Counted from the first letter of the stretch, positions 13,011 to 20,500 are shown. The stretch is DNA of 64,000 nucleotides from Mobula hypostoma (GCF_963921235.1 NC_086097.1:3348001-3412000), one strand, 5' to 3'. The notes: generated by a model not told the origin, from the letters alone. A program made the numbers and translations.

Positions 13011-14317
13011 GGTTAAAGAAATTTTCTCAGTGTGTTTGAAAATTGGTGCACTATTAAAATTAAAGTTCAGAATCAGTTGAAATAAAGAGCAATAGACCTG
13101 TAGGCACAGCAGGAGGATATTTACCACTTCATACCAGTATTGCTTCTCAGACTGATCCACTAACTCCCATTTCCAAAACCTTCAAAAGGCAAAGGCCTAG
13201 AAAATTTCAGTTCTCTAATACCCTTTCCTACATCTGGGAGTGGATTAAGTTTCAACATTCAGGATTGCTTAATGTCATTTCCAGCACACAAGTGTAAAGG
13301 AAAACAAAATATTTGTTACTCTAGTTCCAAAGCAGCACAGAAAAAACACAATAAGATACAGAACACAATAATAAAAAATCACAATAAATAAGATAGCTTA
13401 TATATAAAAATATAGATTGATTATACATCCATAAAATGATGCCAGGCACAGGAGTCTGTACATAAAGTGACTCTGACAGGAAATAATAAAGACTTGGTGG
13501 TGGGGGCTTGGAGGGGTGGGTTAGTGAGTTAACGTGTTGATCAGCCTTACTGCTTGGGGAAGGTAATTGTTTTTAAGGCCATAAGACTATAAGATATGGG
13601 AGCAGAATTAGGCCACTTGGCCCATCGAGCCTGCTCCACCATTCAATCATGGGCTGATCCACTTCATCCAGTCATCCCCACACCCCTGACTTCTCCACAT
13701 ACTCTTTGATGCCCTGGTTAATCAAGAGTCAATCTATCTCTGCCTTATATACACCCAATGCCTTGGCCTCCACAGCCGCTCATGGTAACAAATTCCACAG
13801 ATTTACCACACTCTGACAAAAGTAATTTCACCGCGTCTCAGTTCTAGAAGGACATCCTTCAATCCTGAAGTTGTGCCCTCTTGTCCTAGTATCCCCTACC
13901 ATGGGAAATAACTTTGCTGTATCTAATCTGTTCAGGCGTTTTAACATTCAGAGATTCCCCCCTCATTCTCCTGAACTCCACGAATGCAGCCCAAGAGTTG
14001 CCAGATGTTCCTCATACAGTAACCCTTTTTTCCTGGAATCATTCTTGTGAAACTTCTCTGAACCCTCTCCAACGTCAGTATATCCTTTCTAAAATAAGGA
14101 GCCCAAACTGCACACAATACTCTGTGTGGTCTCACGAGTGCCTTATAGAGCCTCAACATCACATTCCTGCTCCTATACTCTATTCCTCTAGAAATGAATG
14201 CAACATTCCATGTGCCTTCTTCACCACCGACTCAATCTGGAGGTTAACCTTTAGGGTATCTTGCACAAGGATTCCTAAGTCCCTTTGGCTCTCTGCATTT
14301 TGAATTCTCTCCCCATC

Positions 14318-14515
14318 TGTTGTGTGTGTGGCCTGGTTACACAACAATGCTATTAATAAAAACGCTGGAAATGGGAGCTAAGGTTCATGGTTCTTTACTG
14401 GCAGAAACCGAACTCGGCACACACGTACAAATCAATACGTGCCTAATAGTGCATTCAATGATGTGTTACTAGAACATAAAGTAGTCCCTTATTAAACTGT
14501 AGGCTATACGGTACA
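14318..14515 (-). repeat. 3' LTR
   Basis: Direct repeat of 18066-18260; reads TGTACCG...CAACA on the minus strand. Confidence 0.95.
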
Positions 14516-14528
14516 CTCCTCCCCTTTT
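14516..14528 (-). promoter_or_regulatory. Polypurine tract
   Basis: AAAAGGGGAGGAG on the minus strand directly before the 3' LTR. Confidence 0.9.
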
Positions 14529-15089
14529 ATTTTAATAGTGTATCAATTGTTTTTTTTTTACTGGGGCACTATGCTAAACAAATATGTTTACCCTTAATGT
14601 ACAAACGTCTACCATTTGTTTACTTAGTAACTTAATAATATCAAATTATAACAAAGTAACATAATAATATCAAATTATAACAAGCCTTTTTTTCACTTTT
14701 GGTCTAAGACCCATTTATAACTCAAGTCTCTGGGGGGGGTGGGTCTTCTCTAGATTGTCTGGCATGAAGCAAATAGGTCTTCACTCTGTTGTCTGGAATA
14801 AATTAAACAATCCACAAATTGGCAGGTTTCAGCCATAAAGAGAAGTCACCTCCATCTTACAAAGATGACGAAAGCAAAGTGAAATCCATGAAAAGGTGAA
14901 TGTTATTCTTAAAAATATGTACAATCATCAAAACTGAGATGGCATTGGAAAGTGTCTTCAAATAGTGTGTTCTTCAGTCTGTCAATAAACTTGTTTGTTT
15001 TAATACAGATTTCCATATAAAAGTCATGAACAGTTGACCTCTGAGCATAGGGAGTTAAGAAGATGTGCGCCTCCAACTTGCTAAGAGTT

Positions 15090-16031
15090 CTATGCAGCAG
15101 ATCGCCTCCGTATAATGAAGACTCCTCTGTGCAGCTGTCCTAGATATACACGCATCTTTGTGCTATCACTTATCTTCCTTACCCATATCTCATTTGTTCC
15201 AACTGAGCTAATTGCACAGCCAATCTTCGTATTCTCATTAGATTCCAAATAGATAGCCTGACCTTTATGATACCACCTCTTATCATAATATAACTTTCCA
15301 TCTTCTATTCGTGCTTCATATCTTTGTGCTGGTGATTCAGCAGGAGTGCTGGGAAGATGTTCAGGAGAAGACAGAGGTGCTGGTCTTTTCGGAGATTTAA
15401 GCTTATTGAGAGTTCACAGATCTTCGATTATCTGTTCATCTGTGAACAAGTAATTTAACTGCGCAGGTGCAGGTTTTTGTCTTTTGTCTGTAATTGGAAC
15501 AGGGTCATTAGGTCTCCTCCTTAGTTTCTTAGTCATTATTGGCTTTACCTCCATAGGATCTCCTGTGAATTCCATTGTTAGCCTCTCATTCTCAATCATC
15601 TGTTTGTTTTCTTCTAACTCAATCTTTTTATCTTCCTTTTAAATTCCATCACTGCTGCTTTCTTCTCTTTAATATAATTCCTTTCCACTTGTTCTGTCTC
15701 CAGTTGCAGAAAAAAACTCTGCATTTTGTATTCTTTCCTTGTATTGTTGATCTGGTTTCTTCATCCTTTTCTGATACTCCTGCAAAGTGCCTTCCTGTAT
15801 CTGCTGTAGCTGTATTTTGAGAGATGTCAATTTCTCCTGGTACATCTGCTCTTTTACTTCCAGGTAGTCTTCATCATCCTGCTTATTGGCAATATCTGTC
15901 TCCCTTGCATCCTCTGTATCTTCATCCGAGTCGCAGCCACGGATACTGCGTTCATCCTCATCGTTGACGCTGTCTAGCTCCTCCTCATCATTGTAATAGT
16001 CGACAGTGGGTGAGAGAAGAGCTGTGGACAT
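15090..16031 (-). pseudogene. SUDS3: Processed (intronless) retrocopy of SUDS3, Sin3/HDAC corepressor component SDS3; frameshifted, with a premature stop
   Basis: [21 protein letters not shown]...DEDTEDA...[77 protein letters not shown]...RRRSAA* are collinear with vertebrate SUDS3 as I recall it, from start to stop. Confidence 0.95.
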
Positions 16032-17233
16032 CTTCCCCGCTGAGCTGCCCTCCTTTGTTAACACATCTAGTGCCTTGATGGTGTGCCAATCCAACTGGAT
16101 TTTCCTGAGCCATTCACGTCCCAGCAACGGTGGTCCTCTGTTTTTCAGTACGTAGAGGTTCAGCTGCTGTGTTTTGTCTCCGTAGGTCACTGTCACTTTA
16201 ATTTTACCTTTGGGATGCACTTTCTGTCCTGTGTAAGTCTTTAGCAGTAGTTTAGTTCGTTTCAGAGGTATGTGAGAAAACAGTTGTTTGTAGTCATGTA
16301 CAGAGATCACTGTTAAAGCTGAGCCTGTATCCAACTCCATTTTAAGTCTCACACCTGCCACTTATGGAGTGATCCTTATTACCCTTCGATCATCTGTCTC
16401 TTTCACGCTGTGAAGTTGCAGACAAGACAATTTACTTTCATCTGAGTCGTTTTCATCAGAACTGCTTTCTCCCATTTTGTGTACATTGTTGTGTTTTCCT
16501 TTCTGGGGTTTCTTGTTTCTCTGTATTTTGTCCTTTTTCTGCTGTTTACTAGCTTTGCATACTCTGCCAGTGTGGCCCTGTTTGCCACAGTTTCTGCATT
16601 CTTTGTCTTTAAACCAACAGTCACCAGGGTGATGTGACCTGTTCTCACAACAGTAACATTTCTTCCCTTCATTTCTGTTCAGTGACATTTTATACATAGC
16701 ATATTCCAGAGATTCTTGTTGTATCTCCGAAGCACCTTGTGCCACTGTTTCTAATGATATTGCAATGTTCAGTGCTTTCTCGAATGTAAGGTCTCGTTCA
16801 CACAGAAGCTTCTTCTGTGTGGCTTCACAGTGCATGTCACACACTAACCTGTCCCTCAATGTGTCCGATAGACCAGCTCCAAATTGACAATGTTCTGATC
16901 ATTTGTGCAATTCAGCACAATATTCAGAAATGCTTTCGTTTTTGTTCTGATTCCGTTTGTGAAATTTAAATCTTTCAGCTATTCAGTGGTTTGGGGTTTA
17001 AATACTGTTGGAGAGAGTCTACTATTTGCTTGGACATTTTGTCAGTGGTTTTCAGTGGTTAACAAGCTCCGTAGTAGCCGGTATGTTTTTGCTTGCATAA
17101 TACTGAGTAAGACGCTGGCTTTCTTTTCATCATTAACACCGTTAGCCTCACAATATAATTCCACTTTTTCAATGTAAGTTACCCAGTTTTCAATGCTACT
17201 ATCAAATGCTGTAATGGTTCCAAATATCGCCAT
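16032..17233 (-). pseudogene. Gypsy gag and aspartic protease, disrupted
   Basis: MAIFGTITAFD...NW..YIEK; RDRLVC; CCHC knuckles CYCCENRSHHPGDC and [22 protein letters not shown]...LLGREWL; in-frame stop at 16362-16364 and indels near 17040. Confidence 0.92.
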
Positions 17234-17422
17234 CCTTGTTATGTTAATTTAGCCCCGTTTTTCCCCGTTTTCTTTTCAGCTAGCTCCTTGCAGTCACAGC
17301 ATGTTCCACTTGACTCACGTGTCATTTTTGCTAGCGCAATGAGCGCACTCCGTCTAGATGCGTGTGTTGCTCCTTTTCATCTCCCTTCTCTCTCTTCTCC
17401 TCTGAGTGACATTATTAACTAA

Positions 17423-18006
17423 CACAAAATAATCTGCAGATGCTGGGGTCAAAGCAACACTCACAACACGCTGGAGGAACTCAGCAGGTCGGGCAGCATC
17501 AGTGGAAATGATCAGTCAATGTTAACTCAGGTTGGATCTACTGCCATGATGAGGCTAAACTCAGGTTGGAGGAGCAACACCTCATATACTGTCTGGGTAG
17601 TCTCCAGCCCCTTGGTACGAACATAGAATTCTCCAACTTCCAGTAATTCCCTCCCCCTCCCTTCCCCTATCCCTATGTCACTCTGCCCCCTCCCCCAGCT
17701 GCCTATCACCTCTCTCATGGTTCCGCCTCCTTCTACTACCCATTGTGTTTTCCCCTATTCCTTCTTCACCTTTCCTGCCTATCACCTCCCTGCCTCCCCT
17801 CCCCCACCCCTTGATCTTTCCCCTTACTGGTTTTTCACCTGGAACCTACCAGCCTTCTCCTTCCCACCCTCCCCCCACCTTCCTTATAGGGCCTCTGCCC
17901 CTTCCCTCTACAGTCCTGACGATGGGTTCCGGCCCGAAACGTTGACTGTTCATTTCCATGGATGCTGCCCGACCTGCTGAGTTCCTCCAGCGTGTTGTAA
18001 GTGTCG
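17423..18006 (+). mobile_element. Truncated Penelope-like insertion with inverted termini in the Gypsy leader
   Basis: Inverted arms about 17463-17523 and 17939-17998; TSD TTATTAACTAA at 17412-17422 and 18007-18017. Confidence 0.88.
17910..17949 (+). ncRNA. Minimal type I hammerhead ribozyme motif (Penelope pLTR)
   Basis: ACAGTC-CTGACGA-T-GGGT-TCCG-GCCC-GAAAC-GTT-GACTGT: 6-bp stem I, conserved core, 4-bp stem II, palindromic loop-less stem III, NUH site. Confidence 0.8.
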
Positions 18007-18050
18007 TTATTAACTAAAACACGGCATTCCGATAAGATGTAGGTTCATAA

Positions 18051-18062
18051 TTCTCGACGCCA
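18051..18062 (-). promoter_or_regulatory. Primer-binding site
   Basis: TGGCGTCGAGAA on the minus strand, 3 nt downstream of the 5' LTR. Confidence 0.8.
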
Positions 18063-18065
18063 ATT

Positions 18066-18260
18066 TATTGTGAATGTGGCCTGGTTACACAATGCTATAA
18101 ATAAAACTGTTGGAGCCAGGAGCTAAGGTTCATTGTTCTTTACTGGCAGAAACTGAACTCGGCACACACGTACAGATCAATACGCGCCTAATAGCACATT
18201 CAATGACGTGTTACTAAAACATAAAGTAATCCCTTATTATACTGTAGGCAAAACGGTACA
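18066..18260 (-). repeat. 5' LTR
   Basis: Direct repeat of 14318-14515. Confidence 0.95.
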
Positions 18261-19232
18261 CCATCTAAATAATAGTCTGCCCATTTATTTCTTCCACCAA
18301 AGTGCATGACCATACACTTTCCAACATTGTATTTCATTTGCCACTTCGTTGCCCATTTCCCCTAAACTATCTAAGTCTCTCTGCAGGCTCTCTGTTTCCT
18401 GAACACAGCCTGCTCCTCCACCTGTCTTTGTATCATCGGCAAATTTAGCCACAAATCCATTAATACTGTAGTCCAAATCATTGACATACATCGTAAAAAG
18501 CAGTGGTCCCAACTCTGACCCCTGTGGAACTCCACTGGTAACTGGCAGCCAACCAGAATATGATTCCTTTATTCCCACTCTCTGTTTTCTGCTGACCAGA
18601 CAATGCTCCACCCATGCTAGTAACTTCCCTGAAATTCCATGGGCTCTTATCTTGCTAAGCAGCTTCATGTGTGGCACCTTGTCAAAGGCCTTCTGAAAAT
18701 CCAAGTACACCACATCCACTGCATCTCCTTTGTCTACCCTGCTTGTAATTTCCTCAAAAAATTGCAGTAGATTAGCCAAGCAGGATTTTCCTTTCAGGAA
18801 ACCATGCTGGCTTTGTCCTATCTTGTCATATGCCTCCAGGTACTCTGTAATCTCATCCATAACAATCTATTCCAACAATTTCTCAACCACTGATGTCAGG
18901 CTAACAGGTTTATAGTTTCATTTCTGCAGCCTGCCACCCTTCTTAAATAGTGGGGTAACATTTGCAATTTTCCAGTCATCCGGTACAATGCCAGAATCCA
19001 TCGATTCTTGAAAGATCATCATTAATGCCTTCGCAATCTCTGCAGCTACTTCCTTCAAAACCCAAGGGTGCATTCCATCAGGTCCAGGAGATTTATCCAC
19101 CCTCAGACCATTAAGCTTCCTGAGCACCTTCTCAGTCGTAATTTTCACTGCACAAATTTCACTTCCCTGACACTCTTGAATATCTGGTATACTGCAGATG
19201 TCTTCCACTGTGAAGACTGATGCAAAATAATC

Positions 19233-20500
19233 CTGCACAAGGACTCCCGAGCCTCCTTTCACCTTAGATTTTTGAATTTTCTCTCCATTTAGCAAATAAT
19301 CAACCCTTTCATTTCTTCTACCAAAGTGCATGACCATACACCTCCCAACACTACATTCCATCTGCCACTTATTTACTCATTCCTTTAATCTATCCAAGTC
19401 CTCTACACTTCCTCAAAACTACCTGTCCCTCTACATATCTTTACATTATCTGCAAACATGGCCACAAAGCTATTATTTCTGCCATCCAAGTCATTGACAT
19501 ATAATGTAAAGAAAGCGGTTGCGACACAGACCCCTGTGGAACACCACTAGTCACCGGCCAGCAGCCAACCAGAAAAGGCTCCCTTTATTCCCAGTCTTTG
19601 CCTCCTGCCGATCAGGCACTGCTTTATTCATGCTAGAATCTTTCCTGTAATACCATGAGCTCGTAGCTTGTTAAGCAGCCTCATGTGTGGCACCTTGTCA
19701 AAGGCCTTCTGAAAATCCAAGCACACAACATCAACTGATTCTCTTTTGTCTATCCTGCTTGTTATTTCTTCAGAGAATTCCAACAGAATTGTCAGGCAAG
19801 ATTTTCCCTTGAGGAAACTAAGCTGAATATGGCCTATTTTATCATGTATCTCCAAGTACCATGAAACCACACCCTCAAATCCAATATCTTCCCAACCACT
19901 GAGGTCAGACTAACTGGCCTGTAATTTCCTTTCTTCTGCCTCTCTCTCTTCTTGAAGAGTGGAGTTATATTTGCAATTTTCCATTCCACTGGAACCATGC
20001 CAGAATCAATTGATTCTTCAAAGATCATTACTGTTGACTCCACAATCACTTCAGCCACCTCTTCCAGAACCCTCGGGCGTACTCCATCTGGTTCAGCTGA
20101 CTTATCTGCTGTCAGACCTTCCAGTTTCCCAAGAACTGTTTTCTCTAGTAATGGCAACTTCACACACCTCTGCCCTTGACACACTCAAACTTTCTGCACA
20201 CTACTACTGACTTCCACAGTGAAGACTGAGGCAAATACTTATTCAGTTCATCTGTCATTTCCTTGTCCCCCATTACTACGTCCCTAGTATCATTTTCCAA
20301 TGGTCCTATATCCACCCTTGCCTCTCTTTTACACTTTATATATCTGAAGAAACTCTTGTTATCCTCTTTAATATTATTGGCCAGATTACTTTCATTTTCT
20401 AACTTTTCATTAGTGACTTTAAAAGCTTTCCAATCCTCTACCTTCCCAGTAACGTTTGCTCTACAATATGCTCTCTCTTTGGTTTTAATGTTGGCTTTTG
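19233..20500 (-). mobile_element. Degenerate CR1 ORF2 fragment
   Basis: GNYRPVSLTSVVGK, LDFQKAFDKVPH. Confidence 0.85.

Follow-up and report, generated by a model that had tools for sequence, protein, structure and literature searches.

Acutely transforming retroviruses carry a host complementary DNA (cDNA) in place of pol, fused in frame to Gag (Gag-Onc), and are defective and helper-dependent. The chimeric reading frame of the maize retrotransposon Bs1, studied by Elrouby and Bureau, reportedly begins in gag. Retrocopies of animals that are mediated by long terminal repeat (LTR) retrotransposons and formed by template switching have been described, and the passages of that article on their formation cite the capture of oncogenes by retroviruses through microhomology-guided template switching (Tan et al. 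2016, Genome Res, PMC5131818). In cartilaginous fishes, SUDS3 is named in the main text of a recent survey among the five parental genes with the most retrocopies (bioRxiv 10.64898/2026.06.26.734816). Here we describe a locus of the ray Mobula hypostoma in which these themes meet. The window, which is the whole stretch of 64,000 nucleotides that was analysed (NC_086097.1:3348001-3412000), contains on its minus strand, at 18260..14318, what is very probably a dead copy of a non-autonomous Ty3/gypsy-type LTR retrotransposon family. The family carries a spliced SUDS3 coding sequence where pol would be expected, and the in-frame fusion of the two is best explained as a by-product of the capture.

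Fusion of gag and protease to a spliced SUDS3 copy

The frame from stop to stop at 15669..16361 of the minus strand (230 amino acids) encodes a retropepsin and then runs into MSTALLSP..., the start of SUDS3, without a stop codon. The preceding frame, 16362..16898 (178 amino acids), contains two C-X2-C-X4-H-X4-C (CCHC) knuckles, read directly at 16658..16557. It has the same phase, and a lone TAA at 16364..16362 separates the two frames. Direct reading thus bears out two statements of the first-pass annotation of this DNA, namely that the protease frame leads straight into the SUDS3 start and that Gag lies in the same frame, one TAA away. Residues 164-215 of the 230-residue frame match the Pfam family Sds3 (PF08598) with an E-value of 1.1e-05 and 26 bits, above the cut-off of 25.4. 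Residues 3-86 match gag-asp_proteas (E 1.7e-05) with 25.7 bits, below the cut-off of 28.2, and every Pfam match of the window copy to an aspartyl-protease family is under its cut-off. The retropepsin motifs DTGS (16331..16320) and LLGREWL are present, and PF13975 is on record for P0001, a relative of the element that bears pol. No family was found at E<=0.01 in the other five pieces of the window in the Pfam scan. Beyond 15669, SUDS3 can be read only in other frames, and therefore the window copy is broken. Relative to the parental gene, its SUDS3 part contains a 1-base insertion, a 5-base insertion, and one in-frame stop (parental codon 212). Its gag has lost 2 bases near 17049 and another 2 near 16983, and it is further interrupted by a stop at about 16901-16899 and by the TAA at 16364-16362.

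The parental gene was recognised by the peptide KENLIAEL, which is contained in true ray SDS3 proteins and is missing from the window and from all of the SDS3-like proteins retrieved for comparison. A degenerate pattern for this peptide has a single match in the genome, in an intron-containing SUDS3 gene on the minus strand of G000:C78 (about 8380296-8439661), with 12 coding exons, 960 coding bases, and 319 residues. The insert of the element is colinear with all 12 coding exons, including a microexon of 20 bases, and contains none of the 11 introns. The SUDS3 insert is a processed, spliced copy. The microexon is located at 8402395-8402376 (L023, L024; G000:C78:8395736-8402395), and the parental intron between 8398854 and 8395736 has ATATCC...AC ends, which we take to resemble those of a U12-type AT-AC intron.

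All 20 copies of the family that were examined lack 24 bases of the SUDS3 coding sequence, an in-frame deletion of eight residues. Their absence cannot be attributed to alternative splicing, since a single parental exon contains the 24 bases; the deletion therefore occurred in the element lineage. A contig of run X1, one of four runs guessed to be RNA, corresponds to spliced parental SUDS3 and includes the 24 bases absent from the family. The loose end of this contig indicates that the 5' untranslated region (UTR) of the parental messenger RNA (mRNA) continues upstream of the switch point for at least 37 bases, and therefore the 5' switch is internal to the mRNA.

The boundaries of the insert were located by comparison with relatives that retain pol. 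The DNA homology between the window and these relatives (83-91%) extends from gag to exactly 16044 in all 12 loci compared, and homology to the parental 5' UTR starts at approximately 16053. At the junction, marked here by a slash, the element reads ...AAAGGAGGGCAGC/AAGGCT..., the parental gene ...GGCGGGCAGC/TCGGCGGGGAAGATG, and the chimera ...AAAGGAGGGCAGC/TCAGCGGGGAAGATG. Because of this alignment, the 5' switch is placed within the shared GGGCAGC (16050..16044). The probability of at least seven shared bases at random junction pairs of element and parental sequences is 0.0007. The 12 bases of 5' UTR between the switch point and the ATG are in phase with the frame of the element; therefore, the capture event was also the origin of the fusion frame. 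The first-pass annotation had considered that the junction might map inside the SUDS3 5' UTR and that a later indel might have created the frame; the first part holds, but no indel is needed. At the other end, parental 3' UTR homology stops at 14752 and homology to the element resumes at 14751, and the parental 3' UTR continues in the genome past this junction. Neither poly(A) nor a target duplication typical of long interspersed elements (LINEs) was found at the ends of the insert.

Approximately 2676 bases of pol have been replaced by 1292 bases of SUDS3. In two relatives, the replaced stretch contains, in order after the protease (PR), matches to the reverse transcriptase (RT) family RVT_1 (4e-13), to RT_RNaseH_2 (1.7e-36), and to the integrase (IN) family rve (6e-14). 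Relative P0124 has gag-pol as one continuous frame of 1311 amino acids with the order PR-RT-RNaseH-IN, and 150 or more places in the genome match a peptide taken from the beginning of the P0001 RT region. The locus combines the internal replacement and the microsimilarity that are the marks of template switching.

Copies, integration and decay of the family

Positions 15000-17300 of the window were searched against the 3.48-Gb assembly of the same species. There were 47 matches, with 40 candidates scored out of 2026 seen at first look. The 40 scored matches are 84-95% identical to the window, and the long ones (90-94%) span gag, protease, and SUDS3 together. A 30-base word across the junction, searched without gaps and with up to three mismatches, occurs at 279 sites of the genome, compared with none for the reversed control. 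An in-frame junction is a one-in-three outcome of a single event, and the first-pass annotation had allowed that the frame might be such a coincidence of one copy. Instead, the junction is shared throughout a family of at least 279 members.

The statistics of copies given here, on lesions, duplications, selection, and the tree, rest on 20 of the at least 279 copies. Homology between copies stops at the tips of the LTR pair, of about 198 bases each. A target duplication of 5 bp of its own flanks each copy that can be assessed, exact in 12 of 20 and with four of five bases in another three; the remaining five have a truncated or shared LTR and are not assessable. A search of the assembly with the flank of the window element found no match elsewhere. 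Because of these separate duplications, the copies are independent integrations and not segmental duplicates. The tree of the family is star-like, and internal branches account for 5% of its length; the divergence within LTR pairs has a median of 0.099 and a range of 0.064-0.151 (12 copies). Together, the shape of the tree and the LTR divergence indicate that the family spread in a single short burst long ago and then decayed.

Each of the copies has its own lesions in the SUDS3 part, with zero to four stops (mean 2.15) and zero to three frameshifts (mean 1.0). No SUDS3 stop is present in more than five of the 20 copies, and all of those in three or more copies are at CGA codons of the parental gene; the repeated stops reflect CpG decay and not shared ancestry. 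The recurrent stops are at window 16286-16284 and at parental codons 102, 191, 212, 247, and 316, all of them CGA codons. In the 398 codons of gag-PR, the TAA at 16364..16362 occurs in two chimeric copies (the window and L002) and in none of the 12 pol-bearing relatives. Therefore, this codon is a mutation, and it is ruled out as a native Gag terminator with read-through. The sole frequent stop of gag-PR is a CGA/TGA/CAA site, which is affected in 10 of 20 chimeric copies and nine of 12 relatives. None of the 20 copies is intact; gag-PR is unbroken in one of them and SUDS3 in none.

Because the element lineage has one continuous gag-pol frame and the switch is in phase, the frame of the founder was most likely open over 398+4+311 = 713 codons, which would encode Gag, the protease, four linker residues, and SUDS3 without the eight deleted residues. 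The suggestion of the first-pass annotation that the element could encode Gag-PR-SUDS3 when it was formed gains support from the in-phase junction 12 bases upstream of the ATG and from the fact that each stop or frameshift seen is confined to a minority of copies.

The element of the window has the layout of an LTR retrotransposon (Table 1). Its LTRs of about 198 bases, its TG...CA ends, and its 5-bp duplication, the CCHC knuckles of its Gag, its retropepsin, and the order PR-RT-RNaseH-IN of its relatives agree with the Ty3/gypsy type. Its LTRs are 87% identical, with 22 mismatches in 193 aligned bases. In most copies, AATTGGCGACGA follows the LTR; this TGG-initiated motif after the 5' LTR is a candidate primer-binding site.

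Table 1. Features of the SUDS3-carrying element, listed from its 5' to its 3' end (positions are those of the window)
Feature	Position	Strand	Remarks
5' target-site duplication GATGG	18261..18265	-	identical five bases beside both LTR ends
5' LTR, starting with TGTACC, end slightly eroded in this copy	18068..18260	-	repeat D3, 88%
Primer-binding-site-like TGGCGTCGAG	18053..18062	-	just inside the 5' LTR
Foreign insertion of ~580 bp in the leader, private to the window copy	17426..18006 (approximate ends)	-	absent from other copies
gag, ATG at 17233	16362..17233	-	homologous to Gag of P0001 and P0124
Retropepsin and first residues of the PR-RT linker	16051..16361	-	from alignment with 12 relatives that retain pol
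5' switch point, 7-base microhomology GGGCAGC	16044..16050	-	common to the PR-RT linker of the element and the SUDS3 5' UTR
12 bases of SUDS3 5' UTR, forming four codons (SAGK) in the gag-PR frame	16032..16043	-	
Spliced SUDS3 coding sequence, ATG at 16031	15090..16031	-	11 introns absent
SUDS3 3' UTR, 338 bases, ending within the UTR, no poly(A)	14752..15089	-	
3' internal region of the element itself, from the 3' switch point	14516..14751	-	~80% identical to two pol-bearing relatives from 14751
Polypurine tract AAAAGGGGAGGAG	14528..14516	-	found in nearly all copies
3' LTR (TG...CA)	14318..14515	-	
3' target-site duplication GATGG	14313..14317	-	

Terminal inverted repeats of about 38 bases (ACAACACGCTGGAGGAACTCAGCAGG...) bound the insertion in the leader, and an imperfect direct duplication, approximately 20 bases long, lies on either side of it. 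The pol-bearing relatives align across the site of this insertion, and fragments of the same repeat are also present in other loci. The element itself was inserted into a LINE reverse-transcriptase frame, which continues across the target duplication (window 18285-20184 and 13941-14377), and the neighbouring LINE fragments form the direct repeats D1, D2, D4, and D5, spaced by 1 kb.

Several copies have features of their own. The copy at G000:C21:3363091-3365356 has nearly the same coordinate number and the same strand as the window copy on C1. It was ruled out as an allelic or duplicated form of the window locus, being only 90% identical to it and not sharing its flanks. In copy L008, a polypurine-tract-like AAAGAGGAGGAG directly precedes the 5' LTR (at about 949 of the oriented copy), and two family members seem to stand there in tandem, sharing one LTR. 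The LTRs of the family are either about 198 or about 223 bases long, and some copies (L003, L006, L016, and others) hold one of each, which is unexpected because the LTRs of a copy are identical at insertion. Approximately 225 bases of the captured 3' UTR (window 14752-14977) are absent from about half of the copies. The carriers of this deletion form no clade, which rules it out as a clade marker, and it therefore either arose more than once or passed from copy to copy.

Origin of the family and competing explanations

Based on the junctions, the parental gene, and the dispersed copies, the origin of the family can be proposed. While an autonomous element was being reverse-transcribed, the enzyme would have left the element RNA for a spliced SUDS3 mRNA packaged with it, entering this mRNA inside its 3' UTR. 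The whole SUDS3 coding sequence would then have been copied before the enzyme returned to the element RNA at the 7-base microhomology located 12 bases before the ATG. In this one capture, the RT-RNaseH-integrase region (~2.7 kb) would have been exchanged for the 1292 bases of SUDS3, and the hybrid would have retained the LTRs, primer site, polypurine tract, gag, and protease. The hybrid then reached at least 279 sites in a single short burst, probably copied in trans by the pol-bearing relatives, and all copies subsequently decayed. That the fusion is in frame most likely follows from the position of the microhomology, as a by-product, and was not selected for.

Some observations weigh against this origin or leave parts of it less secure. 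We infer the mobilisation in trans from the LTRs and ends that the hybrid shares with its relatives, and all 12 of the pol-bearing relatives examined are broken in gag-PR. By the criterion that gave 279 sites for the chimera, the native PR-RT site of the relatives is found at 203 sites. The microhomology at the 3' junction is at most 2-3 bases, so that only the 5' switch is individually convincing. Finally, a weak signal against pure neutrality comes from a comparison of the synonymous to non-synonymous ratios of non-CpG variants present in two or more copies and of singletons. Pooled over gag, PR, and SUDS3, the shared variants (79:144) are richer in synonymous changes than the singletons (242:640; p=0.021).

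These points bear on the alternative that the fusion was functional for the element, which we regard as unlikely. The Gag-PR-SUDS3 protein, or SUDS3 released from it by the protease, would interfere with or redirect silencing by the Sin3-histone deacetylase (HDAC) complex and thereby boost the hybrid over its relatives. It would account for the capture of a complete coding sequence in phase, 12 bases before the ATG, for the 24-base deletion being in frame as well, for the founder frame inferred to be open over 713 codons, for the weak enrichment of synonymous changes in the pooled test, and for the larger number of chimeric junctions than native PR-RT sites; non-autonomous derivatives, however, often outnumber their helpers regardless of cargo. 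The ratio of non-synonymous to synonymous change (dN/dS) between copies is 0.478 in gag, compared with 0.709 and 0.661 in shifted frames, which also favours a function. The difference is smaller in SUDS3 (0.556 compared with 0.628 and 0.647), and in PR the value of 0.474 lies beside 0.456 and 0.840. Taken alone, SUDS3 gave 29:57 for shared variants and 104:301 for singletons (p=0.14), gag gave 39:70 and 89:254 (p=0.051), and PR gave p=0.83. Because internal branches are only 5% of the star-like tree, nearly all change is decay after insertion and the selection tests are nearly powerless. An open frame kept under purifying selection on the cargo was not found among the 20 copies in these tests of low power, and the absence of any intact copy also argues against a function.

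The changes that preceded the burst speak in the same direction. The family differs from the parental gene by 10 synonymous and three non-synonymous fixed differences and the deletion. The replacements S43R, P187T, and S263G and the loss of eight residues affect sites that are invariant in ray orthologues, and they look like relaxed constraint. In comparisons with three ray orthologues, 303/303, 319/319, and 318/319 residues of the parental protein are the same; because of this near-identity, the replacements and the deletion are assigned to the element lineage. The synonymous distance from parent to founder of 0.134, minus 0.063, leaves 0.071, which is approximately the change of the parental lineage alone since the burst. 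Because of this agreement, the stem of the family was short, and it looks unconstrained. Contigs of X3, X4, and X9 bridge the junction with at least 31 bases on each side; that these runs are RNA is a guess, and a high-copy repeat assembles from DNA as well, so that the bridging contigs need not reflect transcription. A role of the fused protein is unsupported by positive evidence, as are the suggestions of the first-pass annotation that the protease might have released SUDS3 and that the cargo could have affected silencing, and the selection signal amounts to a weak trend at most.

A narrower form of the functional explanation, with even less probability, is that the SUDS3 cargo was a weapon. 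Tethered to Gag or released by the protease, the Sds3 protein bearing the deletion would become a decoy subunit within the Sin3-HDAC complex of the cells that expressed the element, loosen chromatin silencing, and let the hybrid out-multiply its helpers (279 compared with 203). If this were true, the decoy Sds3 would be a counter-silencing factor borne by a retrotransposon in a vertebrate, with a layout comparable to that of a Gag-Onc fusion.

The host might instead have taken over one or more copies as a new SDS3-like gene, for which the retrotransposon was only the vehicle; we consider this very unlikely. SDS3-like proteins with the same eight-residue deletion are annotated in two ray genera, and full-length frames are present in P0009 and P0010 (311 amino acids) and in P0011 (321 amino acids); the gene models P0007 and P0121 read through the junction region. 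However, the lesion rates leave about 4% of copies with an open SUDS3 frame by chance, and for this reason a few such frames, roughly 10 of 279, are expected without any takeover. The SDS3-like proteins also bear many replacements relative to a parent that is otherwise invariant among rays. Finally, it is extremely improbable that a SUDS3 pseudogene processed by a LINE landed in a gypsy copy and that the block spread by segmental duplication: the genome is LINE-rich, the element itself lies within a LINE, and main-text passages of the survey attribute the retrocopies of cartilaginous fishes in general to non-LTR elements and list SUDS3 among the top genes (10.64898/2026.06.26.734816), but the insert ends have neither poly(A) nor a target duplication, pol was replaced and not interrupted, the homology of copies ends at LTR tips beside their own 5-bp duplications, and the flank of the window element is unique in the assembly.

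Relation to known systems

Capture of SUDS3 by template switching, with the fusion as its by-product, places the family close to described cases, and we rate it as a large, old, and dead new member of the known LTR-mediated retrocopies. In the literature on SUDS3 together with LTR retrotransposons and on families formed by LTR-mediated retroposition, the SUDS3 family was not found described; the supplements of the survey of cartilaginous fishes may hold more. The survey ties the abundance of retrocopies to non-LTR elements, and its main-text passages name no LTR vehicle, junction, or fusion frame (10.64898/2026.06.26.734816). The family explains the high rank of SUDS3 there, since the copies, in this genome at least, are cargo of a retrotransposon and not independent retrocopies. 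Because they are such cargo, it is misleading to count them as gene duplications or to annotate them as SDS3-like genes.

The likeness to the retrocopies of Tan et al. is extensive, as far as the consulted passages of that article describe them (PMC5131818). In both, an internal retrocopy without poly(A) replaces part of the retrotransposon frames, and there is microsimilarity at the switch points, with a median of 6 bp in their set and 7 bp at the 5' switch here. In both, the chimera behaves as a non-autonomous LTR element that is retroposed again, and their longest frames, like the one here, often share the frame of the parental protein. Tan et al. describe single or few copies, often of partial mRNAs, whereas the SUDS3 family has a complete coding sequence and at least 279 copies of the same junction; moreover, it belongs to a cartilaginous fish, a group outside the sampling reported there. 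The family shows that LTR-mediated retroposition, which in animals is known mostly from single young retrocopies, can launch hundreds of copies of a complete host coding sequence.

As in maize Bs1, the internal region of an LTR retrotransposon contains transduced exon sequence of the host. According to the passages that treat it, Bs1 combines fragments of three genes and is present in one to five copies in Zea, whereas the SUDS3 family has one whole coding sequence in hundreds of copies (PMC5131818, PMC7264820).

With the Gag-Onc retroviruses, the SUDS3 family shares a host cDNA in the place of pol, the frame common with Gag, and the defective, helper-dependent state that we propose for it. 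It differs from them in being an endogenous, gypsy-type element without env that was amplified in the germline and retained its protease, and its cargo is a corepressor subunit. The in-frame Gag-PR-SUDS3 layout may thus serve as a natural and testable analogue of the retroviral Gag-Onc fusions, with a chromatin corepressor as its cargo.

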